A DNA stretch of 21,163 bases from Ignisphaera sp. (GCA_038889075.1 JAWAHS010000013.1:1-21163); one strand, 5' to 3'; shown: positions 2,219 through 20,867, counted from the stretch's first letter. Made by a program: numbers and translations. The notes: generated by a model not told the origin, from the letters alone.

Positions 2219-4048
2219 ATGGGGATGCAAATAAATTTTGATAAAGATACTGGAATAAGGTCGGTAGCTATAGTACTACTATCGTTTTTAGCACTATCTA
2301 TGCTACCAGTATCCGGAACTGTACTAGCGGGGAGGAATGATAGTAATGCATCTGCTTACCAGGTTGAGCTGGTAAGGGCTGAAGTTCTCCGTATGATGCT
2401 TACTGTGGTAACTAATTTGAATATATCTGAAGGACTGAGGATATCCATAGATGAGCTACTGAGTGTTAATATATCTGATCTAGAGCTTGATGAGCTGAGG
2501 GAGTGGGTTTCAAATGCATCGAGGCTTCTAGCCGGTGTTGAGAGGGAGGTCAGGGAGGGTAGAGCATATGCTGTTGGTATAGCTCTACAGAGATATCTAA
2601 ATGGTCTTGCAGGAGCTGTTGAGGCTAGGGCTAGAAGATTCAATCTCACGAAAGAGGAGATAGAGGGGATAGTGGTTAGCATATCCCGTACTGGGACAGC
2701 CAGAGAAGAAGCTGTAAGGATTCTAGAGAGGGTGCGTGAAAGGATACAGATATACAATGTGAAGAGGTTTGCAGAATCTATTGTTAGAATGGGTGTGGAG
2801 AGTGTTGAGGAGGACTCCATAGAGTCGATTATAAGGGCGCAGCAGATGCTTGAGAAAGCTACTGGAATACTCAATGCAACAATTAATAGACTGGAGACTG
2901 CAAACATCTCGGATAATGCATTAGAGGCCATCAACCGTGCTATGGAGAACGTTAGAACGGCAAGGGAGATTCTGGGAAACATATCTAGTGAAATCGCTGG
3001 AGCTGCTACGCCTATTGAGAGGGAGCGGGTTAGAGAAGCTGTAAACAAAACACTTTCAAATATGGTTGAGAGAGTGCTGAATGAAGTTAGCGATGTTAGG
3101 GAGGAGATAGAGGTGCTTATCGAGGAGTGTAGAAATGCAAATGCAACACAGCTTGTAGGGAGGTTGGAGGCTCTACTTCGACAGCTAGATGATATAGCTA
3201 GTAAAGTTGCAAATATATCTACAGTAGATCTCCATACAGTAGTTTCAGAGATTTCAAGGGTAAAGCTCGAGGTTAAACGGATTGAGAGGGAGCTGGAGAT
3301 CAGCATTGAGGAGCTTCCAAGACACTTCATTGAACTGGATGAACTCTTTGACAAGACTGTTAGAGAGTTGAGGAGCCTTGTAGATGATGTCAATAGGGCT
3401 ATAGAGAGGCTTAGCACTATAGATACATCTAGAATTGTATGTATAGCCATATACCCACCTCCACCGGCATGTGAAATAGCTAGAAAGCTACCAGCAATTC
3501 TAGAGGAAGCTAGAAGAACTACTATAAATGTACAGCAGAGTATAGAGAAGGCTATAGAACTCTACAATATGGATAGAAGGAGTGAAGCACTTAATCTACT
3601 ACTTAGAATAAGGACAGAGCTACACTCTTTGAAATTCCAGCTAGAGAGCATAGAGAAGCTTCTACATGAATTTATAACAAAGACACAGATACCGCTAACA
3701 GCTACACCAGTTATACCACAGCCCCCAGTTACACCAAACAAGACAGCAGTGCAACTAAGTATAGCAAGGATCTATATTAGGGGGAGGACACTCCATATGA
3801 TAATGGCTATTAGAAATGGTGGAGCTAGGGATATTGAGGCGGATAGAGTTGTTATTAGAGCTGGAGATCTAGAGATAGAGAAGAGCGTAGATATAGTTGT
3901 TAGAGCTGGTTCTACAGTACAAGTAACAATAGGTATAGAGATCGATGTATCTACAGCTGTTAAGCTACTTCAATACCACCAAATCCTAATAGAGATATAT
4001 AGGGAAGGGAATTTGATAGCATCAGCAGCTACAAATATAGGTGTATAG
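2219..4048 (+). CDS. Hypothetical secreted/surface alpha-helical (coiled-coil) glycoprotein with P/T linker and C-terminal beta-rich (Ig-like) domain
   Basis: N-terminal hydrophobic signal (VAIVLLSFLALSMLPV), long E/R/L/I amphipathic helices, 13 N-x-S/T sequons counted by hand, a CIAIYPPPPAC loop, a TATPVIPQPPVTP linker and an alternating beta-strand pattern at the end. Confidence 0.8.
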   Translation: MGMQINFDKDTGIRSVAIVLLSFLALSMLPVSGTVLAGRNDSNASAYQVELVRAEVLRMMLTVVTNLNISEGLRISIDELLSVNISDLELDELREWVSNASRLLAGVEREVREGRAYAVGIALQRYLNGLAGAVEARARRFNLTKEEIEGIVVSISRTGTAREEAVRILERVRERIQIYNVKRFAESIVRMGVESVEEDSIESIIRAQQMLEKATGILNATINRLETANISDNALEAINRAMENVRTAREILGNISSEIAGAATPIERERVREAVNKTLSNMVERVLNEVSDVREEIEVLIEECRNANATQLVGRLEALLRQLDDIASKVANISTVDLHTVVSEISRVKLEVKRIERELEISIEELPRHFIELDELFDKTVRELRSLVDDVNRAIERLSTIDTSRIVCIAIYPPPPACEIARKLPAILEEARRTTINVQQSIEKAIELYNMDRRSEALNLLLRIRTELHSLKFQLESIEKLLHEFITKTQIPLTATPVIPQPPVTPNKTAVQLSIARIYIRGRTLHMIMAIRNGGARDIEADRVVIRAGDLEIEKSVDIVVRAGSTVQVTIGIEIDVSTAVKLLQYHQILIEIYREGNLIASAATNIGV

Positions 4049-4124
4049 AGTCAAAATAATTTTCCCTAAATATTCAAATGGAATCTAAAATAAACATTCA
4101 CATACCCCTAGGTGAAGAGATGGT

Positions 4125-4892
4125 ATGAGATTCGTCTTCCAGGCCCTAATCCCTATAACAATCCTATTAATTGTGACGATACCTGGTAGCATATATACAG
4201 AGATGCCGCCTAATATAACCATCTATATAGATGGAAATGGGGTAGCTATAGTAACCATAACTACAGATGCCATTGAGGGTATTAGCTCCATCTCCCTACC
4301 TATAGAGCCTTTGGAACCTACAATAGAGGTTAGATGCGATGACTATGAGATTCCATGGCTACTTACAGATACCCTACAGCTACACCTATACACTGAAAAC
4401 AGGTGTAGTGTTACAGTGAGCTATATAGCAAATGTATCGATTCAAGGAGGCGTGCTCGCCATAGATATAGCTGGTGGTATACCTGTAAAACTTGCTCTAG
4501 ATCCAAAAATAGTACTTTTAACAGTACCGCAAAACATAGCATCTGTAGCTTACGAAAATGGTCTACTCACAATAGTCTTCACCGGACCAGTAACAATAGC
4601 ATACACAATGCTAACAGAAAAACTGCCAACAACACAACCAACTAAATCACCGGTAGAGAGTTCAACACCAGCTCCATCAACAACACCCACTACTCCAACA
4701 CCATTACCTACAGCTACACCACTGATCTCCAAACCTACTCCACCACCGGCTATAACAACATCGCGGCAAACAATAGAAGAAATACGGACAGAAACTCTTC
4801 AACTAACAACAATAGTAGTTGTTGGGATAGCTATAGTAGCAACAACCGCAATATCCATCGTATTGTTAAAACACAGAGATAGTCTAAAATAG
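4125..4892 (+). CDS. Hypothetical membrane-anchored surface protein (signal peptide, beta-rich domain, P/T/S linker, C-terminal TM helix)
   Basis: GGTGA RBS; hydrophobic N-terminus; PTTQPTKSP...TTPTTPTPLPTATP linker; TIVVVGIAIVATTAISIVLL followed by KHR. Confidence 0.8.
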   Translation: MRFVFQALIPITILLIVTIPGSIYTEMPPNITIYIDGNGVAIVTITTDAIEGISSISLPIEPLEPTIEVRCDDYEIPWLLTDTLQLHLYTENRCSVTVSYIANVSIQGGVLAIDIAGGIPVKLALDPKIVLLTVPQNIASVAYENGLLTIVFTGPVTIAYTMLTEKLPTTQPTKSPVESSTPAPSTTPTTPTPLPTATPLISKPTPPPAITTSRQTIEEIRTETLQLTTIVVVGIAIVATTAISIVLLKHRDSLK

Positions 4893-5116: not shown

Positions 5117-6499
5117 TTACTTTAGAGAGGAGTTTATTAGCTTCTTTACATCCTCTTTAAGCTTTGCTAGAACCTCTTCATCGATTTCAAGGAGGGTTGG
5201 ATCACGGCCACGGCCCCAGCTGTAGATTATAGGTATAAGCTTACCGTTTCTACGTCTATAATAAAGATAGATGATCTTCTCTGAGAGTGCAATGTTCATC
5301 TTGTGCCAGTGGTTTACTACTCTAGAACCGAACCTCACAACTAGTTTACCTCTATTTTTAAGCCATAGCATTTCATTTATTAGCGTAGACCAGTACTCCT
5401 GCGGATCAGTAATGACATTGAATACCTCGACTCCATGGAACATAACTATGTCGGGGTTTAGCTTCTCGATAAGCTCAATAGTTATTGCATGTAGATGTGT
5501 TACTGAGTAGCTGGTTGGATTTATCGATTCAATGTATAGGTATTTCTCTAGAAGCTTTACTGCATCATCTCTGGCTAAGCCGGCGTATCTAGTAAGGGCT
5601 GCAATGTTTGCCTCTAGACTTTCATCTCGTGAGTATCTGTATGATAGAAAGAGTCCTCTAAGATTATTTGTGGCAAGCAGATCTATAAATGGTATTGCTA
5701 CAAGGGGGGTTCTAGCCATAGGTGGGTATGATACATAGACTATATCACCTCTTCTCACAGGTTCTAGTAGGTGTTTGGTAATCTCAAGGGTTCCGTGAAT
5801 CAAATCTCCTTTGCCTAGAGATCTTTCTGGTCTCGGAGGTAGGTATACCTTAAAACCTTCTCCCTCAACGATGGCAAAGGGCAACTCAGTTACAGAGACC
5901 GGTGTTCCGCGAGCCTTTCTAAGTTCAAGTATTCGTGAGAGTAAGCCACGTACAGACCTGTGCTTGAGGTAGAGTATAGCATCTGCGACAAACTCTATAG
6001 CTCCAAGCTCCAGGGACTCTCTTCCAAAGGGGAGTTCCGCTACAGCAACCAGCAGACCGTTAACTGCTTGGGCAAGCTGGTAAAAGAAGTTTAGAAGTAG
6101 TGCCCTCTGTGTTTCTCTCCTTTCACAGAGCTCTAAAGCAGCATTAACCGAATCTATCACTACAATATCGTATCTATTTTTCGCAACGAGCTCCGCTATG
6201 GTATTCATAATCTCTTCAGCTGATGTAATTGGAAGTCTAACAAACTGTAGCAGCCCCTTACCCTCAACCTCGCCCAACCTTATTCCAAGCCTCTCCATGT
6301 TATAGAACAGCCTATCTTTATCCTCATAGAATGTTATGTAGAGGCATCTCCTTCCCAGTAACGAATTTGCATAGCAGATCTTAGATGCAAGAGTAGTCTT
6401 ACCGGCACCAGGATGACCAACTATCAAAAGCATAGTACCAGGTCTAAGTCCACCAAGTAGAAAGTCGAGCTCCCTGGAACCAGTAGTAATTGTATCCAA
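5117..6499 (-). CDS. KaiC/RAD55-like RecA-superfamily ATPase, two domains, second domain degenerate
   Basis: ITTGSRELDFLLGG, Walker A GHPGAGKT, YITFYE, Walker B IVVIDS, EFVADAIL and LELRKARGT. The likely start is TTG at 6499 (GAGGGAG upstream), because the track start at 6571 lies upstream of the TATA box. Confidence 0.88.
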   Translation of the reverse strand: MDTITTGSRELDFLLGGLRPGTMLLIVGHPGAGKTTLASKICYANSLLGRRCLYITFYEDKDRLFYNMERLGIRLGEVEGKGLLQFVRLPITSAEEIMNTIAELVAKNRYDIVVIDSVNAALELCERRETQRALLLNFFYQLAQAVNGLLVAVAELPFGRESLELGAIEFVADAILYLKHRSVRGLLSRILELRKARGTPVSVTELPFAIVEGEGFKVYLPPRPERSLGKGDLIHGTLEITKHLLEPVRRGDIVYVSYPPMARTPLVAIPFIDLLATNNLRGLFLSYRYSRDESLEANIAALTRYAGLARDDAVKLLEKYLYIESINPTSYSVTHLHAITIELIEKLNPDIVMFHGVEVFNVITDPQEYWSTLINEMLWLKNRGKLVVRFGSRVVNHWHKMNIALSEKIIYLYYRRRNGKLIPIIYSWGRGRDPTLLEIDEEVLAKLKEDVKKLINSSLK

Positions 6500-6544
6500 T
6501 GAAGCTCCCTCAACATTCGCTATACATATCACTTCCCTTACTAT

Positions 6545-6558
6545 AAGTTTATAAACTT
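6545..6558 (-). promoter_or_regulatory. TATA box for the KaiC-like gene
   Basis: TTTATAAA (6548-6555) lies within the palindrome AAGTTTATAAACTT, with purine-rich TAAAG 5' of it on the minus strand. Confidence 0.55.
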
Positions 6559-6714
6559 TAATGCAATTCATACATCTATCTATAATCTAAATAATACATT
6601 TATAGCGGTCCATCACCTCCAACCTGGAGGATAGGGCTTTGAGTTGCAACCAATCTCTATACACAGGGATTTCCATGCGATCTACCCATTGATTCTAAAG
6701 CGTTAAATACTCTA

Positions 6715-7323
6715 TTAACAATGCAATCTAGTATCTCTATCTACTATTCTTGTAGATTGAAAAATGTATTGTTTATTTGTGTGTAGCAACTTCGCCATCA
6801 GGGGAACAGCTGTGATAATTACTAGAAGAGCTAGTGTGGCTATTATGAAGAGCTGTGGAGTGGTCAACTCAGTAGTTGGGTAGAGGTTTCCCTAGTTACC
6901 GTAACTGTTGTGGTGGCAATTGTAGAGGTCTTTATGGGGTTATGGTGCTACTAGCAAAGGTGGTTGATATAGATGGTGTTGCTGATGGTAGTGCTGAGGT
7001 CGTTTGTATACTAGGGCTAACTATTGTGGTGATCATACCAGTTTGTGCAGCTGTTGAAGCTATAGTTTTAGTAATTACCTTACCCTCTATACCTAGAATG
7101 ATCTCAATCTCGATAGATCCATCAGATCCTATGTCAACCTTAACCACCAGTTCTCTGCCACTCAAGTTATTCCACGTTCTCGGGAATGTGCGATGGTATC
7201 ACCTGGAGATACAGCAACATCTTTGTAGAAGATGTTCTGCTGATCTATATTGTCGTACTTGATAAGCTCTACGTCTATTGCTATGGGATAGTCACCTCTA
7301 TTACATACGGTGAAACTTCCCAT
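6715..7323 (-). pseudogene. 3' remnant of a membrane-anchored surface protein with at least 3 frameshifts
   Basis: Successive frames read SFTVCNRGDYPIAIDVELIKY...VAVSPGDT / SGRELVVKVDIGSDGSIEIEIILG...T/S-rich linker...TITP / IKTSTIATTTVTVTRET / YPTTELTTPQLFIIATLALLVIITAVPLMAKLL...stop at 6715. No signal peptide is present; the 5' part is missing next to the amidohydrolase stop. Confidence 0.7.
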
Positions 7324-7402
7324 GGGGAGAAGCTCATGTTGAGTGTATGTCTTGCAGTATTTATATGGAGAGCCAGGGGTATTGGATAAAAATGGGTGTA
7401 TG

Positions 7403-8617
7403 CTAGATCTCAAGTGAATAAACATTTACGGCATTTTTATATAGTATTCTCTCAGCTATTTCTAGAGCATCACTTAAATCTATTAAATCCAAAGAGAGCC
7501 ACTCTTTTAGCAGTGAAATAAGGGCTTTTCTCAATGCTACCGCACTTATCCAGTGTAGCTCCGGGGTGTAGTATCCATCTGAGGCATACATGATTTTTGA
7601 GGCTGGTGCTAGTTCTAGGGCTTCTCTAATCCTATGTTCTAGGTTAGCTAGGCCGAATGGAGTTGCTACAGATATATCCATGTATACGTTGGGGAAGGCA
7701 TTGGCCAGGTAGGATGTTATAGCAACATTGGGATATCCCCCATGCACTAGTACTATCTTTGTTTTTCTCGTTCTTTCATCTTTAAGAAACTGGAATAGTA
7801 GATGGGGAAAGCTCTTTGATAGTAGTATATCCTTATCCCCTATTCCTGTGTGTATCTGTACAACCTTGCCGTACTTCCTACACCTCTCTACAACTAGTGA
7901 GAGTACGTATTCTCTCAAAATCCTGATAACTGGGCCAAACCAGGTCTGTTCACAGTGTTTCTCTTTACATTCTGTGAATTCCTTTCTAGCCTCATCTTCG
8001 TCTCTCCACGATATATCTAAGCCGGTTCTGTATGCTATGATGGATTTAAATCCTACATATCTAGAGTCTTTGGCGAATTTTTCGATAGTGTGCTCTATAT
8101 CTGCTACAAAGTCTGTAAATGTGCTGCTCTCTTCAAAAATACGCTTTACATCCGGTTCAATTCTATGTATATATCTAGCTGAGATCCATCTGGGTAGCAA
8201 CTCCTCGAATTCCTCAATTCTTAGATTGGGCAGTGCATGCTCACCCCTAGCCTCAGAGTACCCATCATCAATAACAAGCCCTCTAATTCTAGCCTGTCTA
8301 AATAGAAGCTCTACATAGTCTCTAAAACTCCTTTCAACCAGCCCAGATCTCTTCTTCATAATTTTCAAGGGGTCTCCTAAGCCATCCACCTCTAGAAGTT
8401 TAGATAGCTCCCTCAGCATAAACCTGTATATCAGCAGAGTCTCCAGATCTCTAAACCCCTCTCCACCCTCATATGCCGGTCCTCCTATGGCTAGCAATCC
8501 AGCTAGATGCTCTGGCGATAATCTAACGTATCTAAAGGGATGCGAGTGTGTATCTATAATCCAGGTGTTCTGAATCCTCTCTTCAAACTCCAGAGATTCC
8601 CCTATCCTCTGACCCAC
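7403..8617 (-). CDS. Metal-dependent amidohydrolase, FluG/NodGS N-terminal-domain type
   Basis: IIDTHSHP (HxH), FKSIIAYRTGL, QIHTGIGDKD, VLVHGGYP, NVYMD, MYASDG and ILYKNA. Confidence 0.88.
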   Translation of the reverse strand: MGQRIGESLEFEERIQNTWIIDTHSHPFRYVRLSPEHLAGLLAIGGPAYEGGEGFRDLETLLIYRFMLRELSKLLEVDGLGDPLKIMKKRSGLVERSFRDYVELLFRQARIRGLVIDDGYSEARGEHALPNLRIEEFEELLPRWISARYIHRIEPDVKRIFEESSTFTDFVADIEHTIEKFAKDSRYVGFKSIIAYRTGLDISWRDEDEARKEFTECKEKHCEQTWFGPVIRILREYVLSLVVERCRKYGKVVQIHTGIGDKDILLSKSFPHLLFQFLKDERTRKTKIVLVHGGYPNVAITSYLANAFPNVYMDISVATPFGLANLEHRIREALELAPASKIMYASDGYYTPELHWISAVALRKALISLLKEWLSLDLIDLSDALEIAERILYKNAVNVYSLEI

Positions 8618-8637
8618 TATACTCCCCAGCTACTACC

Positions 8638-9996
8638 CTAGTATACATCGAGGAAGGTGCTCCTCTCCCAATCAGTAACCCTATAGTAGTATTGATCCCA
8701 CTGAAACTTCTTTAGCTTCACGTATTCGGAGACAAGGGTATCGCCCCAGAACTCCCTCATGAGGACACTCCGATCAAGCTCCTTAATAGCCTCCAGAAGA
8801 GTTTCCGGATACCTATACCAGCCTCTTTCCTCCCTATCTTTCTCTGGATAGCTTGCTGGATTATCTAGACACGGCTCCCCTGGATCCATCTTCTTCATAA
8901 CTCCATCTATACCAGCTGCTATAATGCTTCCAATAGCTAGATACGGATTAGCAGTTGCATCAACGAATTTCATCTCTAGTCTAACAGATTGCGCCTCTCT
9001 ACCCTTTGCAGGTCTAGCTATCCTTATTGCAGCCTCCCTATTTTCAGGGCCATAGCATGTAAACGCAGATGCCCATGCACTGGGTCTAAGTCTCTTATAG
9101 GAGTTTACAGAAGATGCTGTAAAGGCTATAATCTCTTTAAGATGTCCTAGAACCCCGCCTATGAAGTGGTAGGCCTCGTCACTTAGGAGATGTTTATCAC
9201 CCTCATCATAGAATATATTAACCCCATCCCTCCACATACTGATATGGATATGCAGCCCACTGCCCGGTAGATTCTCCGAGGGTTTGGGCATAAAGGAGGC
9301 ATAGAGGCTGTGCTTCCCTAGAACTCCCCTAAGGGTCTCCCTAAAGTATATAAAGTTATCCGCAGCCCTAATGGGTGCCTCAGGCTTCAGAGACAGTTCG
9401 TGCTGACCAGATCCATATTCTGGATAGTAGTGGTCTACATATATACCCTGGTACTCAAGCGCATTCACTATCTCACTTAATATAGGGTGAACGGCATTCA
9501 TACCCTCGGTAGAGAAGCAGAGGTGCCTTTCATACGGCTCTATCACCCCCCTAGGACTCTTCTTAAGTATATAGAATTCGGGTTCGATACCTATCTTGAA
9601 TTCATACCCCAGATTCTTTAAATATCCTCTTAGCTTAGGCCTCGGATCAACTTCGTGGGGTTTGTCCCCCACGTACTGCTCCACTATCATAGCTGCCGTA
9701 GCATCCACATAGGGAAGCACCTTAAATGTTGAGATATCGGGGATCAGTGTTACCTCTCCCCGTGGTCCATATATGGTTCCACTTACAGCGAGATCCGTTA
9801 TGCTAAACCCTGACTGCATGATCATAGCTAGCGTAAGTCCTCCTCGAAGATCTGTATCTATGTTTTTAGCTGTTGAAACCCTTCCTCTAATCACATTATC
9901 TAGATCTATGTACAGGTATCTGATGAACTTGATATTCTTCTCTCGAATAGTCTTTTCAATCAATTCCGGTGTTATTTTATCGAGGTTTAGACTCAT
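8638..9996 (-). CDS. Glutamine synthetase-like protein, probable gamma-glutamyl-amine/polyamine ligase
   Basis: GIEPEFY, EYGSGQHE, SFMPKP, GSGLHIHIS, NSYKRL, NREAAIRI, RLEMK and ANPYLA. It lacks the DGSS motif and has SAWAS where true GSI has GYEAP, so it is not called glnA. Confidence 0.9.
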   Translation of the reverse strand: MSLNLDKITPELIEKTIREKNIKFIRYLYIDLDNVIRGRVSTAKNIDTDLRGGLTLAMIMQSGFSITDLAVSGTIYGPRGEVTLIPDISTFKVLPYVDATAAMIVEQYVGDKPHEVDPRPKLRGYLKNLGYEFKIGIEPEFYILKKSPRGVIEPYERHLCFSTEGMNAVHPILSEIVNALEYQGIYVDHYYPEYGSGQHELSLKPEAPIRAADNFIYFRETLRGVLGKHSLYASFMPKPSENLPGSGLHIHISMWRDGVNIFYDEGDKHLLSDEAYHFIGGVLGHLKEIIAFTASSVNSYKRLRPSAWASAFTCYGPENREAAIRIARPAKGREAQSVRLEMKFVDATANPYLAIGSIIAAGIDGVMKKMDPGEPCLDNPASYPEKDREERGWYRYPETLLEAIKELDRSVLMREFWGDTLVSEYVKLKKFQWDQYYYRVTDWERSTFLDVY

Positions 9997-10014
9997 TGAA
10001 GAGCACCTAAAAAA

Positions 10015-11403
10015 TCATATCTTTCCATACTTGTCGGGAACAATGGATCGGGCTAAAATCCACAGTATCGATACCCATGCGATGCTGATTGCTCCAGTGA
10101 TAACTGCTATATCAATACCGTAGCTGGTTGTAAGGTCGTAGAACATTGCAAAGACCGTTATCGCTATACCTATGAAGCCTAGGATTGGTGTTGCTGGCCA
10201 TCCTGGTACCTTCCACGGTAGCTGCTTGACTATTTCGGGGTGGGTCTTTCTGAATTTAAATGCTGCTAATAGTGTTAGAAACCATGAGACTATCCATGCC
10301 CAAACCAGCTCGTATCCCAAGAGCATATAGCCTAGTGTATGCCCTACAAAGGTTCCCATCAGTATTAGGGTAACCGATACTATCAGCACCAGCACTATGT
10401 TGTATACAGGGGTTCCAAATCTCGGATGTACATATCCAAACCATTTGGGAACTCTATATCCTCTTTTAGCCAATCCATATAGATCTCTAGCAGGCTGGTA
10501 CATGGTTCCCATGAGTAGGCATGTAGAGGCTGCTAGCCATGCGGCAAACGCTATCACCATGCCTCCTACAGGGCCCCATAGCCTATAGGCAGAGGTTGCA
10601 TATACAGCCTCATAGAATTTGACGACCTCTTCATATGGTAGTGTTCCAACTAGGCCTATCAGAGCCCATGTATATATGATTACGAAGGTTAGAGAGGCCC
10701 AGAATAACACTCTCGCTATATCAACCGGCTTCCTAGCTTCTTCACCAGCGAATAGCACGGTTGAAGCTCCCATGAATGCGTATACAGCTGGTGGTATAGC
10801 TGCCACCACCCCTCCCCATCCATTCGGAAAGGGGTTGGTGAAATTCGCAGGGTTTATATAGAATGTTGCTGATATTGCATACCCAACCATTATCCCTATG
10901 AGAAGTACTGTAAGCATAAACTGTGTACCAGCAGCTATCGCTACACCCAGTATATTCAGTACAGCAAATAGTACTACAAAGATTAGTGCAAAGATTGTAA
11001 CCCACAGCATCTGATCACCTAGCTCCACACCAGCATATGAAAGCATGCTGTAGATATAGGTACCTAGAGCTAGACTCGTCGAACCTCCCGCAATAATCCA
11101 GCCAATGCTAAATGCTATGGATGCTATAAAGCCCAGCCTAGTACCGTAGAAGTGGGAGACCCAGGGCTCGGGACCACCTGCAGATGGTCTCCACACAACC
11201 AGCTCACCAAAGGATAGCATCAAAAACATCTGCGTAATACCTGCAATCAGATAGCTTATAATTACAGCCGCTCCTGCTGACACCATGGCATATCCTGTGA
11301 AAGTGAATATACCATCTCCTACAACAGCACCAACTGCAAGAGTGTAAAGCCAGGCAAATCCGAGCACCCGTTTGAGCCCGGCTACAGTTTCTCCACTACC
11401 CAT
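10015..11403 (-). CDS. APC-superfamily amino acid/polyamine permease
   Basis: LKRVLG, VGAVVGDGIF, FGEL...PSAGG, YAFMG...AGEEARKP, FGYVHPRFGTP and about 12 hydrophobic segments. The start is probably ATG 11403 or 11412 (GGTGGGG RBS), not 11457. Confidence 0.92.
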   Translation of the reverse strand: MGSGETVAGLKRVLGFAWLYTLAVGAVVGDGIFTFTGYAMVSAGAAVIISYLIAGITQMFLMLSFGELVVWRPSAGGPEPWVSHFYGTRLGFIASIAFSIGWIIAGGSTSLALGTYIYSMLSYAGVELGDQMLWVTIFALIFVVLFAVLNILGVAIAAGTQFMLTVLLIGIMVGYAISATFYINPANFTNPFPNGWGGVVAAIPPAVYAFMGASTVLFAGEEARKPVDIARVLFWASLTFVIIYTWALIGLVGTLPYEEVVKFYEAVYATSAYRLWGPVGGMVIAFAAWLAASTCLLMGTMYQPARDLYGLAKRGYRVPKWFGYVHPRFGTPVYNIVLVLIVSVTLILMGTFVGHTLGYMLLGYELVWAWIVSWFLTLLAAFKFRKTHPEIVKQLPWKVPGWPATPILGFIGIAITVFAMFYDLTTSYGIDIAVITGAISIAWVSILWILARSIVPDKYGKI

Positions 11404-11459
11404 CTCTACCATCCCCACCACACAGGCATTGTATGGAGAACATCTATGTCGGCACATGC

Positions 11460-11517
11460 TTATTAAACTTTAGTACCACATGTAATACTCTGCATAGTAT
11501 GCTGTTACATTTGTAAC
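11460..11517 (-). promoter_or_regulatory. TATA box and upstream inverted repeat of the permease/GS-like/amidohydrolase operon
   Basis: The minus strand reads AAAG-TTTAATAA (TATA at 11467-11460). A GTTACA-tt-TGTAAC inverted repeat is at 11504-11517. Confidence 0.5.
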
Positions 11518-17103: not shown

Positions 17104-17182
17104 TGGTGCGGCGGCCGGGATTCGAACCCGGGATCTCCGGCTTGGGAGGCCGGCGTCCTAGACCAGGCTAGACGACCGCCGC
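17104..17182 (-). tRNA. tRNA-Gly, anticodon CCC, intronless, CCA encoded
   Basis: Reverse complement GCGGCGG TC GTCTAGCCTGGTCTAGGAC G CCGGC CTCCCAA GCCGG AGATC CCGGG TTCGAAT CCCGG CCGCCGC ACCA forms a full cloverleaf of 79 nt. Confidence 0.98.
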
Positions 17183-17200
17183 GCTATAGTTTCTGTTGAG

Positions 17201-17219
17201 GATAAAATTTTTATATTTT
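17201..17219. promoter_or_regulatory. AT-rich divergent promoter between tRNA-Gly and the GH36 gene
   Basis: GATAAAATTTTTATATTTT gives TATAAAAA on the minus strand about 26 bp before the tRNA, and TTTATAT on the plus strand about 30 bp before TTG 17247/17250. Confidence 0.5.
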
Positions 17220-17249
17220 GCTGGCTCTACTGAGTTTTGGTGGTATTTG

Positions 17250-19355
17250 TTGGAGGGGGTTATATCTGTTGATGGTGTTGGTTTGAGGGTTGTTGGTGTT
17301 GAGCTGATTTTTATTGATGGGTCTAGGGAGAGCTGTGTGTTTGCTGGCGCTGAGGCTGGTAGATATGTGTATAGGTGTGCTAGTGCTACTCTTAGTATCT
17401 ATGTCGATGGTGGTTTGGTAGGTATCGATGTGGATTCTGTTAAGCTGTTGAATTCTATGTTCTTTGCTGAGCTTGTACTTGATTTAGGTGTTGTCGGCAG
17501 GGTGCTGGCTCTAACCCTACATCCAGAGGCTGGCTCTATCTACTCTCCAGCCTTTAGATACTACAATCCTTTAGCTGTTGATAGAGAGCCTACGGCACCT
17601 AAACCGGATGACAATCCCATTTACCCTCCGAGGTTCGAGGCTATAGATCATGGAACCTTTGTTAGCCGATTCCCGTGCTGGACGTATCCCGTGGTTACAT
17701 CTGTGGAATCTATACCGAGCTACACCATATTTACACTAGCTAGAGCTGGTGATAGCTATATCGCTATACTGGCTCTAAGCAACGGTGATGCTACAGCGTA
17801 TATAGGGTCTGGCTCTAGAGTTAGGCTATTCATTGGAAGAGAGAGATATACTGTTGGTAGATCTTGGATACTATCTATTGGAGTATCCAGCGATCCGTAT
17901 AGAGCTGTTGAGAAGTGTACAGAGGGTGCTGCAAGAATAGGGATACTTAAGCTGAGAATTGATAAGAAGCTGCCAAAGTTTGTCAACAGATTTGGCTGGT
18001 GTTCCTGGAACGCTCTACTTACAGAGGATCTATCACACGAAAGTGTTGTTAGAATTGTAAAGGGTCTGCTGGATAGGGGTGTACCGATAAGGTGGATCAT
18101 CATTGACGATGGGTGGCAGAATGAGGTTAGGAAAGGTGTGGAGTGGTTTATAAGGGTACTGCGAGATTTATCGGCAAATGAAAGGTTTCCAAAGGGGTTG
18201 AACGGTCTTGTAGATGAGGTTAGAAATCTGGGGATAGACCATGTCGGTCTGTGGCATACGATAAACATCCACTGGGGAGGTTTTGAAGAAGCTGTATCTA
18301 GAAGGCTCGGTGTTGAAGGCTATAGATTCCCGAGAGCAGATAGCTATGTACCTCCACCACAGATCGAAAAGGCTATAGAATTCTATAGCAGATTCTATAG
18401 ATGGGTTAGAGACAACGGCTTCAGCATTGTAAAGGTCGATAACCAGTGGTCTATACACGCACTATACTGGGGTGGGTATACAGTTGGCGAAGCGTCTAGA
18501 AATATACAGATTGCACTTCAGGTAGGTGCCTCTATAAACGGTCTAGAGATTCTAAACTGTATGTCTATGGCTCCAGAGGACTACAGTAACTACTTCCTAA
18601 GCAACGCCATGAGGGTTTCCATGGACTACATACCGTTTTGGAAGGGAGATGCAAAGCTGCATACACTATTTAGCATATACAACTCCCTTCTATTTAGCCA
18701 CATAGCCTATCCAGACTACGATATGTGGATATCCTACGATCCATATGCAAAGATACACGCAGTTGCAAGGGTATTCAGTGGAGGACCGATATATATAACG
18801 GATAGACATCCGGAGAAAACCGATGTTGAGCTGATCAGGAAGCTCGTACTAGATAACGGAGAGACTGTAGCGGTTAGTGAACCAGGTCTACCAACAAGAG
18901 ATACACTGTTTAGAGATCCGTATAACGAACCTGTGCTACTAAAGGTTGCATCCAGGGTAGGGGATACATATGCACTAGCACTATTCAATGTAAATAGGGA
19001 GGGTATTGAGATATCCGAGGATGTAACCCTCGATATACTTCCCTATAAACTCGAAGGCGAGAGATATGCGTACTATATGGTATTCAGCGGTAGAAAGGGT
19101 GTTATAGGTAGAGAGGATAGAGTTGCAGTTAGCCTAAGGGAGCTGGAGACGGAGATAGTGGTGATAGCCCCTGTAGAGGAGGGCAAAGCTGTTATAGGGT
19201 TAAAGGAATACATACTACCACCATATCCAATTGAGATAGGTAGATACGGTAGCAAGGTATACGTTAAATCCAAGGCCTCCGGAACACTTGTATATCTACT
19301 AGATGGCGAATTTAAAGAGATGGCGGTTGAAAAAGATCAGATTGCAATACTATAG
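17250..19355 (+). CDS. GH36 Sip1/raffinose-synthase-like alpha-galactosidase
   Basis: FGWCSWNA, IIIDDGWQ, GLWHTINIHWGG, VKVDNQ (nucleophile Asp), NCMS, MRVSMDY (acid/base Asp), PDYDMW and SGGPIYITD. The start is probably TTG 17247/17250, as the track start at 17196 overlaps the promoter. Confidence 0.92.
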   Translation: MEGVISVDGVGLRVVGVELIFIDGSRESCVFAGAEAGRYVYRCASATLSIYVDGGLVGIDVDSVKLLNSMFFAELVLDLGVVGRVLALTLHPEAGSIYSPAFRYYNPLAVDREPTAPKPDDNPIYPPRFEAIDHGTFVSRFPCWTYPVVTSVESIPSYTIFTLARAGDSYIAILALSNGDATAYIGSGSRVRLFIGRERYTVGRSWILSIGVSSDPYRAVEKCTEGAARIGILKLRIDKKLPKFVNRFGWCSWNALLTEDLSHESVVRIVKGLLDRGVPIRWIIIDDGWQNEVRKGVEWFIRVLRDLSANERFPKGLNGLVDEVRNLGIDHVGLWHTINIHWGGFEEAVSRRLGVEGYRFPRADSYVPPPQIEKAIEFYSRFYRWVRDNGFSIVKVDNQWSIHALYWGGYTVGEASRNIQIALQVGASINGLEILNCMSMAPEDYSNYFLSNAMRVSMDYIPFWKGDAKLHTLFSIYNSLLFSHIAYPDYDMWISYDPYAKIHAVARVFSGGPIYITDRHPEKTDVELIRKLVLDNGETVAVSEPGLPTRDTLFRDPYNEPVLLKVASRVGDTYALALFNVNREGIEISEDVTLDILPYKLEGERYAYYMVFSGRKGVIGREDRVAVSLRELETEIVVIAPVEEGKAVIGLKEYILPPYPIEIGRYGSKVYVKSKASGTLVYLLDGEFKEMAVEKDQIAIL

Positions 19356-19362
19356 CTTTATC

Positions 19363-19389
19363 TCCAGATACCCAATCCATGTATCTGGA
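19363..19389. repeat. Intergenic inverted repeat (9-bp arms, 9-nt spacer)
   Basis: TCCAGATAC-ccaatccat-GTATCTGGA, extendable by AGCTT (19354-19358) and AAGCT (19393-19397). Confidence 0.7.
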
Positions 19390-19412
19390 TGGAAGCTTCA
19401 AGGTGGTAGAGA

Positions 19413-20867
19413 ATGGGCTTAAAGTTTCCTAGAGGATTTGTATTTGGTTTCTCTGAAGCTGGATTCCAGTTTGAAATGGGTTTACCTGGATCAGAGGATC
19501 CAAATACAGATTGGTGGATCTGGGTACACGATCCAGAGAATATAGCAACCGGTATTGTGAGTGGCGATCTTCCTGAAAATGGTCCTGGGTACTGGAATCT
19601 GTATAAGCAGGATCACGATCTGGCTGATAGGCTTGGAATGGATGGTGCTAGGATTGGTATTGAATGGAGTAGGGTGTTTCCAAAACCGACACTCGATGTA
19701 AAGATATCGACGGAGATTGATAGAGATGGAAATGTAGTTTATGTAGATGTGGATGAGAGAGCTCTTGAGGAGCTGGATAGATTAGCAAATAGAGAGGCTG
19801 TTAATCACTATAGAGAGATGCTCAGAGATTGGAAGGATAGGGGCAAGATTCTTATAGTAAACCTCTACCACTGGCCGCTACCGATATGGATTCACGACCC
19901 TATAAAGGTTAGGAGGTTTGGTCCTGATAGAGCACCATCGGGATGGCTTGATAGTAGAACAGTTGTAGAATTTGCAAAGTATGCAGCATATATAGCGTGG
20001 AAGCTTGGGGATCTCCCAGATATGTGGAGCACTATGAATGAACCGAATGTGGTCTATAGCCTTGGCTACATGAATGCTAGAGCAGGGTTTCCACCAGGCT
20101 ATCTATGCTTTGAAGCGGGTCTAAAGGCTGCTAGGCATCTAATAGAAGCTCATGCAAGAGCCTACGACATGCTGAAGAGATATGCAGATAAACCTACTGG
20201 AATAATATATGCAACCACGGTTGTTGAGCCGCTTACCCATGAGCATAGAGATGCTGCTGAGGTAGCCTATAGAATGCAGAATTTCGAATTCCTGGACTCG
20301 ATAGTATTTGGAAGATCTAGCTTCATCGGTGAGAGGAAGGATCTCGAGAGGCACCTCGACTACATAGGTGTCAACTACTATACGAGACAGGTTGTAGTCT
20401 CCTCTAAAACCCTACTAGGTTGGAGTACGGTACCGGGCTATGGATTTGCATGTCAACCAGGTGGTGTATCTGCCACTGGAAGACCGTGTAGCGAATCTGG
20501 ATGGGAGATATATCCAGAGGGTATGCTAACTGCTCTTGAGAAATTCTGGAAGAGATATGGATTACCTCTAATGGTAACTGAAAACGGTATTGCAGATGCT
20601 ATGGATAGATACAGATCGAGATACATAGTATCGCATCTAGCATACATCCACAGAGCCATTGAGGGTGGTGTTGATGTGAAAGGCTATCTTCACTGGGCAC
20701 TTATAGATAACTATGAGTGGGCACGGGGCTTTGGAATGAGGTTTGGTCTACACTATGTAGATCTAAATACTAAAAAGAGGTATCCTAGACCAAGTGCACT
20801 AGTATTTAAAGAGATTGCAAGGAATAAGGAGGTTGTTGATGAACTGCTGCATCTAGTAGAGATATAG
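19413..20867 (+). CDS. bgaS: GH1 beta-glycosidase/beta-galactosidase (archaeal LacS/CelB type)
   Basis: FGFSEAGFQFEMG, SGDLPENGPGYW, IEWSRVFP, NLYHWPLP, TMNEP (acid/base), GVNYY, VTENG (nucleophile) and DNYEWARGF. Confidence 0.95.
   Translation: MGLKFPRGFVFGFSEAGFQFEMGLPGSEDPNTDWWIWVHDPENIATGIVSGDLPENGPGYWNLYKQDHDLADRLGMDGARIGIEWSRVFPKPTLDVKISTEIDRDGNVVYVDVDERALEELDRLANREAVNHYREMLRDWKDRGKILIVNLYHWPLPIWIHDPIKVRRFGPDRAPSGWLDSRTVVEFAKYAAYIAWKLGDLPDMWSTMNEPNVVYSLGYMNARAGFPPGYLCFEAGLKAARHLIEAHARAYDMLKRYADKPTGIIYATTVVEPLTHEHRDAAEVAYRMQNFEFLDSIVFGRSSFIGERKDLERHLDYIGVNYYTRQVVVSSKTLLGWSTVPGYGFACQPGGVSATGRPCSESGWEIYPEGMLTALEKFWKRYGLPLMVTENGIADAMDRYRSRYIVSHLAYIHRAIEGGVDVKGYLHWALIDNYEWARGFGMRFGLHYVDLNTKKRYPRPSALVFKEIARNKEVVDELLHLVEI

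Follow-up and report, generated by a model that had tools for sequence, protein, structure and literature searches.

A three-gene archaeal operon that probably handles an organic amino compound by gamma-glutamylation

We report here a three-gene operon from a hot-spring Ignisphaera archaeon, found in a stretch of DNA of 21,163 nucleotides (contig C13 of a 1.95-Mb genome that is 99.6% complete), which was analyzed at its full length and is called the window hereafter. According to their Pfam domains, the genes encode, in order along the operon, an APC permease, a glutamine synthetase-like (GS-like) ligase, and an Amidohydro_2 hydrolase, and we give a probability of roughly 0.6 to the reading that the three proteins handle an organic amino compound by gamma-glutamylation. 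The ligase and the amidohydrolase correspond, as separate proteins, to the two parts that are fused in plant NodGS and in fungal FluG, a developmental regulator, and also to the glnA3-SCO6961 pair of Streptomyces coelicolor.

In the mechanism that we propose, the permease would import an organic amino compound, and the GS-like ligase would use ATP to form gamma-glutamyl phosphate and would then transfer the glutamyl group onto the amino group of the compound, instead of onto ammonia. The amide cut by the metal-dependent amidohydrolase would belong to the same pathway, and may be the gamma-glutamyl amide, either directly or once it has been converted further, or else some other amide within the substrate. 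The three genes would be co-transcribed, and the purpose of the module would be catabolic or detoxifying.

Gene Layout

The operon consists of three minus-strand open reading frames (ORFs), located at 10015-11457 (480 residues from the first ATG), 8638-9996 (452 residues), and 7403-8617 (404 residues, with a GTG start). The intergenic gaps are of 18 bp between permease and ligase (9997-10014) and of 20 bp between ligase and amidohydrolase (8618-8637), so that the ORF list agrees with a first-pass annotation of this DNA, which had described three co-oriented genes with these same gaps. That annotation ended the operon at 11412, where the permease ORF has its second ATG (M16), and the recorded form of the protein does start there.

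The GS-Like Ligase

The gene at 8638..9996 (minus strand) is assigned to a non-canonical GS-like, ATP-dependent gamma-glutamyl ligase from its Gln-synt_C domain, its residue pattern, and its position in the trees. The Pfam scores are 319.5 bits for Gln-synt_C and 38.9 bits for Gln-synt_N_2. Two PF00120 genes exist in this genome, and the other one, on contig C8, carries the LDGSSIKG and PGYEAPV motifs of a canonical GS, which leaves the window copy free for another role.

Aligned with E. coli GlnA by MAFFT (GlnA numbering is used throughout), the ligase retains the metal ligands E129, E131, E212, E220, H269, and E357, together with H271, R321, R339, and R344, in agreement with the earlier claim that the metal, ATP, and glutamate motifs are kept. 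The substitutions with respect to GlnA are Y179C, E327W, S53V, N264P, and R359K. The DGSS motif is gone and a Trp takes the place of the flap Glu (RPSAWASAF), both as first described, but this loss may be incomplete at D50, where an Asp (ITDLAV) aligns in an uncertain part of the alignment. C179 and W327 are common to the window ligase and to two of the three fungal fusions that were aligned (P0250 and P0252). Against TIGR00653, the model of the canonical type I GS, the ligase scores 290 bits, under the cut-off of 429.

The phylogenetic position of the ligase was analyzed with three trees, built from tblastn matches of at least 380 aligned residues (111 matches, 92 of them unique), from which truncated genes and a third GS paralogue of one genome (L134 of G110) were excluded. 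These were a FastTree of 108 rows, a quick IQ-TREE of 57 rows picked by hand from those 108, and a careful IQ-TREE (LG+C20 PMSF) of 33 rows, which further omitted E. coli PuuA, L133, and L135 for their long branches, as well as redundant rows. All three gave the same topology. In the 33-row tree, the canonical archaeal GS proteins (the own C8 copy, that of Ignisphaera sp. SKYB63, and that of the Sulfolobaceae-like family f5) and the Bacillus-type GlnA fall outside a GS-like clade with 100/100 support, which holds every amidohydrolase-linked GS-like protein in the tree. Inside this clade, the window ligase and the GS domains of three fungal fusions form a sub-clade supported at 100/99; these fusions, from Chlorociboria, Funneliformis, and Geosiphon, carry Amidohydro_2 and Gln-synt_C. 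The ligase therefore lies outside the canonical GS proteins and does not group with GSI-alpha. E. coli PuuA stands on a separate long branch in the 108- and 57-row trees. By its residues and its place in the trees, the window ligase is not the housekeeping GS.

The Amidohydrolase

The gene at 7403..8617 (minus strand) encodes an amidohydrolase of the FluG-N or 2QPX type with a predicted binuclear metal site, as judged from Pfam (Amidohydro_2, 69 bits), its PDB match, its fold, and its residues. The motifs KSIIAYRTGL and QIHTGIGDKD, already pointed out in the first-pass annotation, are both present in the translation. The sole PDB sequence match is 2qpx (E 4.5e-25), which is also the top Foldseek match (TM 0.81/0.87) of an AlphaFold (AF2) model with pLDDT 90.5 and pTM 0.91, and the next fold matches, with TM 0.61-0.70, are the uncharacterised amidohydrolase 2 (4i6v) and uronate isomerases. 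The 2QPX protein (LSEI_0440) has served as the template for the N-terminal half of FluG, with a common catalytic set of H17, H19, K166 (carbamylated), Y171, H227, H263, and D317 (PMC6478659, Table 2). All seven of these residues are found in the window amidohydrolase as H24, H26, K191, Y196, H256, H292, and D347, and K191, H256, H292, and D347 are invariant across 24 homologues.

An exhaustive HMMER search with the amidohydrolase gave 1544 relatives at E<=1e-3, four of which are long forms of 625 to 1098 residues with both domains, the 625-residue form having only the start of the GS domain. The fungal fusions used here come from Chlorociboria, Funneliformis, Geosiphon, and Ceratobasidium, with A. 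nidulans FluG and plant NodGS lying outside the data set, and they match the window amidohydrolase at E 6e-34 to 6e-32. In a tree of 51 rows, picked from 94 unique matches plus named proteins, the four fungal N-domains fall with the window amidohydrolase within a family clade of 49 rows with a support of 100, in which the precise sister group is unsupported. The amidohydrolase is thus placed in one family with the fungal N-domains, with 2QPX as its nearest structure, consistent with the FluG/NodGS membership first proposed for it.

The Permease

The remaining gene (10015..11412, minus strand, 465 residues in its record form P0393, its ORF being open up to the ATG at 11457) encodes an APC-superfamily permease, with Pfam scores of 119 bits for AA_permease_2 and 100 bits for AA_permease. 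Its best NCBIfam model, TIGR00909, gives 150.7 bits, far under the cut-off of 556.8. With the permeases of the amidohydrolase/GS-like clusters of Bacillota, the window permease shares 40-42% identity (about 300 bits), but with E. coli PuuP only 21.5% over 330 residues (36 bits).

Linkage and Distribution

The conservation of the linkage was examined at two scales. In a survey of 401 sampled genomes of the phylum Thermoproteota, with a homologue threshold of E<=1e-20, the amidohydrolase had a homologue in 17, including this genome and 12 of the 15 genomes of family f5. Of the 16 other Thermoproteota loci, 13 have a GS-like gene directly upstream, and the three loci without it are those of the most distant homologues, with 25-28% identity. 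A wider scan of one genome per species gave 559 tblastn-confirmed amidohydrolase loci, and the linkage was counted in the best 79 of these 559. A GS-like gene is present in 70 of the 79 loci and lies within 400 bp of the amidohydrolase in 28, a permease of the window type (>200 bits) is present in 32, and all three genes are present in 31, namely 30 from Bacillota plus Ignisphaera sp. SKYB63. In SKYB63, the same triad is found in the same order, with identities of 85, 83, and 72%, while among Bacillota the triad occurs in 30 of 44 loci. The linkage of ligase and amidohydrolase is consequently conserved across archaea and bacteria, whereas the complete triad with this type of permease is a feature of Bacillota and, in the archaeal loci that were examined, of this organism and a single congener only.

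A sequence of another genome of the genus (G413:C15:995-1255) shows a match of 88 residues to the N-terminus of the amidohydrolase with two in-frame stops, and may be a decayed remnant of this gene.

Partner Genes in Related Loci

Other genes recur next to the pair. Among 94 anchored loci, a class-III aminotransferase was found in 37, an M20 hydrolase in 43, a GGT in 18, a long APC permease in 18, and a GATase_6-like gene in two, while the window has none of these. The hydrolases follow the lineage: of the 44 Bacillota loci, 41 have an M20 hydrolase; GGT accompanies the pair in 10 of the 11 loci from Nitrososphaerota and in 6 of the 7 from Bathyarchaeota; and the GATase_6-like gene is present in both Thermoproteota loci that come from genome contigs. 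The GGT of locus L044 passes the TIGR00066 cut-off. The aminotransferase partner is PRK08360-like, its best NCBIfam match being NF006228, below cut-off, in six of six loci from five phyla. Together, the permease type and this omega-aminotransferase partner would fit diamines and omega- or diamino acids equally well.

The Bacillota cluster contains the amidohydrolase, the APC permease, an M20 hydrolase of the TIGR01891 type, the GS-like gene, and often the class-III aminotransferase. A sigma-54 activator adjoins it in three scanned loci (L053, L095, and L049), and in L053 and L095, this activator is divergent and has PAS, AAA+, and HTH_8 domains.

The GATase_6-like gene adjoins the pair in SKYB63 and in the Desulfurococcales locus L042 (with a homologue in the metagenome locus L138), and is found likewise in L144. 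Its assignment comes from weak Pfam matches of 29-34 bits, and a PDB sequence search with the protein gave no match. In the present genome, a GATase_6-like (Ntn-type) gene, 72% identical to the SKYB63 orthologue, is unlinked to the triad and sits between a thymidylate-synthase-like gene and a nucleotidyl-transferase gene on contig C14 (C14:28883-29731, or L217:7890-8741).

In sister metagenome loci, the gene order is GATase_6-like, permease (69% identical), aminotransferase, GS-like (56%), and DUF6885. The DUF6885 gene occupies the amidohydrolase slot right after a GS-like gene that is 55-56% identical (L142:2071-3009, L143:2893-3798, and L144:7368-8264), and its product may be a non-homologous replacement of the amidohydrolase; a PDB sequence search with it gave a best E of 0.65 and nothing useful. 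In several archaeal loci, just upstream of the GS-like gene or near it, there is also a long APC permease of 542-549 residues followed by a Metallophos-like protein of 316-320 residues (L042:4002-6589, L138:2391-4999, and L044:2507-5157).

Alternative Explanations

Several observations weigh against gamma-glutamylation of an organic amino compound as the role of this operon. The Asp of the ligase that aligns in the GlnA D50 column, in an N-domain whose alignment is uncertain, means that an acidic residue may remain there and that ammonium use may still be possible. Both curated NCBIfam models fall short, since the best-scoring one, NF045547 (gamma-glutamylputrescine synthetase), gives 438 bits vs. 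a cut-off of 650, in addition to the low TIGR00653 score, and across 14 control genomes NF045547 never passes its own cut-off, which leaves the meaning of that model uncertain. In a PDB sequence search with the ligase, true GSI-alpha enzymes come first (8ool with 250 bits and 4lnf with 231 bits), ahead of GmaS (9qur, 215 bits) and PA5508 (4hpp, 145 bits). The permease is not PuuP-like, which leaves a polyamine specificity without direct support. When the other window ORFs of 80 residues or more, 14 in number, were scanned with Pfam, none scored above cut-off as a DAO-type oxidase, and neither an aldehyde dehydrogenase nor a class I GATase hydrolase of the PuuD type turned up, just as the first-pass annotation had found no PuuB oxidase, aldehyde dehydrogenase, or PuuD hydrolase nearby; an aminotransferase is likewise absent, so that the window has no enzyme of these types to convert a glutamylated intermediate. 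If ligase and hydrolase acted on one and the same bond, the result would be a futile cycle. Finally, the 16 other genomes of the genus yielded a single complete copy and a fragment interrupted by two stop codons, and the module is therefore rare in the genus and accessory.

In a variant of the same pathway, the amidohydrolase would not be a deglutamylase at all but would act on a different amide, for example by opening a cyclic amide or stripping an N-acyl group, exposing the amine for the ligase. Deglutamylation would then fall to another hydrolase, which in this genome would be the unlinked GATase_6-like protein encoded on C14. A second hydrolase is near-constant in the related loci, changing with the lineage (M20 in Bacillota, GGT in Nitrososphaerota and Bathyarchaeota, GATase_6-like in Thermoproteota and also in the metagenome loci L138 and L144), so the amidohydrolase may indeed do something other than deglutamylation. 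The 72%-identical GATase_6-like orthologue on C14, the resemblance that PMC6478659 describes between cyclic amidohydrolases and both 2QPX and FluG-N, and the variable slot that DUF6885 reveals in L142-L144 all point the same way. However, the window lacks a linked second hydrolase, the role of the GATase_6-like protein is deduced from its weak Pfam matches, and the authors of the S. coelicolor work, by prediction only, put SCO6961 at the step of gamma-glutamyl hydrolysis (PMC5403932), and we consider this division of labour a possibility that deserves attention, albeit an unlikely one. A broader proposal, which we put forward as tentative and doubtful in its full extent, is that the GS-like/FluG-N pair would form the core of one conserved undescribed pathway of archaea, Bacillota, and Chloroflexota, fused in fungi and plants. 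A dedicated type of APC permease, an omega-aminotransferase resembling PRK08360, and a gamma-glutamyl hydrolase that changes with the lineage (GGT, Ntn GATase-like, or M20) would also belong to this pathway, in which the amidohydrolase step would be distinct and conserved, and not a deglutamylation.

It is also conceivable that the module is biosynthetic or signalling, and that a gamma-glutamyl amide, theanine-like or FluG-like, is stored or exported via the permease with its level tuned by the amidohydrolase. The clade shared by the ligase and the fungal FluG-type fusions agrees with this, as do the proposal that FluG acts via a gamma-glutamylated metabolite (PMC6478659) and the synthesis of theanine by a plant GSI-like enzyme (PMC9909507). 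Nevertheless, the gene context of the relatives is catabolic in flavour, with a sigma-54 activator, an omega-aminotransferase, GGT, and uptake-type APC permeases, and the patchy distribution in the genus fits an optional nutrient or detoxification trait, which makes a biosynthetic or signalling role quite improbable. As for a second genuine GS that assimilates ammonium beside unrelated genes, it would account for the top GSI-alpha matches in the PDB, the intact metal, ATP, and glutamate residues, and the Asp at D50. Such an enzyme is hard to reconcile with the replacement of E327, Y179, S53, and N264, the TIGR00653 score below cut-off, the 100/100 exclusion from canonical GS, the canonical GS present on C8, and the recurrent amidohydrolase linkage, and we regard this explanation as very improbable indeed. 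Gamma-glutamylation of an organic amino compound is the reading that we retain.

Other Features of the Window

Upstream of the permease gene, a TATA-like box, TTTAATAA (11460..11467, minus strand), is a candidate archaeal promoter of this gene. Its distance from the first ATG (11457) is only 3 nt, which favours the start at 11412, so that the permease most likely starts at this ATG. An oligo-T run at 7388..7392 (minus strand), 11 nt past the amidohydrolase stop, may be an archaeal terminator. A scan of promoters and terminators with a bacterial model, applied here to an archaeal host, gave seven promoter-like sites vs. 13.6 expected and no terminators.

Downstream of the triad, a KaiC-like ATPase gene (5117-6571, minus strand) is syntenic in the triad-bearing congener, with 75% identity, and has many paralogues in the genus, at 30-42% identity. 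The synteny of the flanking genes was compared over five same-genus genomes, which are divergent, with orthologues of 59-65% identity and many KaiC-like paralogues, and the comparison is compatible with gain as well as with loss of the module. The 830 bp between the amidohydrolase and the KaiC-like gene (6572-7402) contain only two short overlapping ORFs (6876-7262, plus strand, and 7162-7425, minus strand) without a Pfam match, and SKYB63 has its GATase_6-like gene at this position.

Farther away, a 609-residue ORF with a sub-threshold ferritin-like match (21.8 bits), and then a 255-residue ORF without a Pfam match, cover 2219-4892, and the stretch up to about 4000 has a high G-over-C skew. 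In the region 17104-20867, tRNA-Gly(CCC) precedes two genes on the plus strand, the first raffinose-synthase-like (alpha-galactosidase-type) and the second for a GH1 glycosidase.

Significance

The substrate of FluG is unknown (PMC6478659), as are those of GSI-like proteins in general (PMC9909507). The unfused pair is widespread in prokaryotes, as seen from the 559 confirmed loci, including several archaeal phyla, and the partners that recur beside it are a single type of APC permease, a single type of aminotransferase, and an additional hydrolase. These partner genes, the thermostable archaeal enzymes, and the tractable Bacillota with their dedicated sigma-54 activator offer routes to the substrate of FluG and NodGS. 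If the conserved undescribed pathway outlined above should prove true, then a substrate found in a tractable prokaryote, for example via the inducer of the sigma-54 activator, would name the metabolite of FluG/NodGS. For the archaeon itself, the module would be an accessory trait for scavenging nitrogen or detoxifying amines. The first-pass interpretation is thus upheld in part: the family, the clade, and the linkage stand, while the split arrangement is not new, the deglutamylating role of the amidohydrolase is one possibility among others, and the triad has a narrow distribution in the archaeal loci examined.

Comparison with Known Systems

The closest described arrangement is the S. coelicolor operon glnA3 (SCO6962)-SCO6961-SCO6960, where the GS-like gene is followed directly by the Amidohydro_2 gene, in the same order as in the window. 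This operon is polyamine-induced (PMC5403932) and encodes the gamma-glutamylpolyamine synthetase GlnA3, with SCO6961 as a predicted hydrolase of the pathway (PMC5403932, PMC9397018). As the operon is described in those sources, it has no permease, and the window, in turn, has no small gene like SCO6960; the likeness to SCO6962 and SCO6961 is one of gene order and published description.

In fungal FluG and plant NodGS, both domains are homologous to the window enzymes, but there they form one polypeptide, whereas here they are encoded by two genes, separated by the 20-bp gap and a stop codon and accompanied by the permease. The fungal fusions have the 2QPX-type catalytic residues in common with the window amidohydrolase, in addition to the shared C179 and W327 of the ligase described above.

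The E. coli Puu pathway (PuuP-PuuA-PuuD-PuuC-PuuB-PuuE) follows the same logic of a permease and a glutamate-amine ligase, and then hydrolysis of the gamma-glutamyl amide. Unlike in E. coli, the hydrolase here is a TIM-barrel metallo-amidohydrolase and not a class I GATase-like enzyme, and there is no gene of the PuuB, PuuC, or PuuD type in the window. In archaea, Haloferax mediterranei GlnA-2 is a GS paralogue in which E327 is absent and Y179 is replaced, as in the window ligase, and this protein, without E327 and D50, was shown to be an active glutamate-putrescine ligase (PMC8394153). GlnA-2, which is not in our trees, lacks D50, whereas an Asp aligns there in the window ligase, with the alignment uncertainty already stated. 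The word "amidohydrolase" is absent from the text of that paper.

The Bacillota sigma-54-linked cluster has the same three families, its permease being 40-42% and its GS-like protein 33-37% identical to those of the window, and it differs in its gene order, in its extra M20 (TIGR01891-type) hydrolase, and in the sigma-54 activator of the scanned loci. Our literature search, with most subscription journals outside its coverage, found no paper on this cluster and none on the pair in archaea, and a P. putida RB-TnSeq preprint and a Nitrosocosmicus paper contain nothing on the pair. In Pseudomonas, PA5510, near PA5508, is described as a "probable transporter" or permease.

The split arrangement that the first-pass annotation pointed out is not new, since the bacterial adjacency of GS-like and amidohydrolase genes and its link to FluG, together with the glnA3-SCO6961 operon, are already in print (PMC6478659, PMC5403932), and a fusion inference for the FluG-type pair appears in PMC4017328. 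What is new here is an archaeal example of a pair already known in bacteria, and not a new kind of system.

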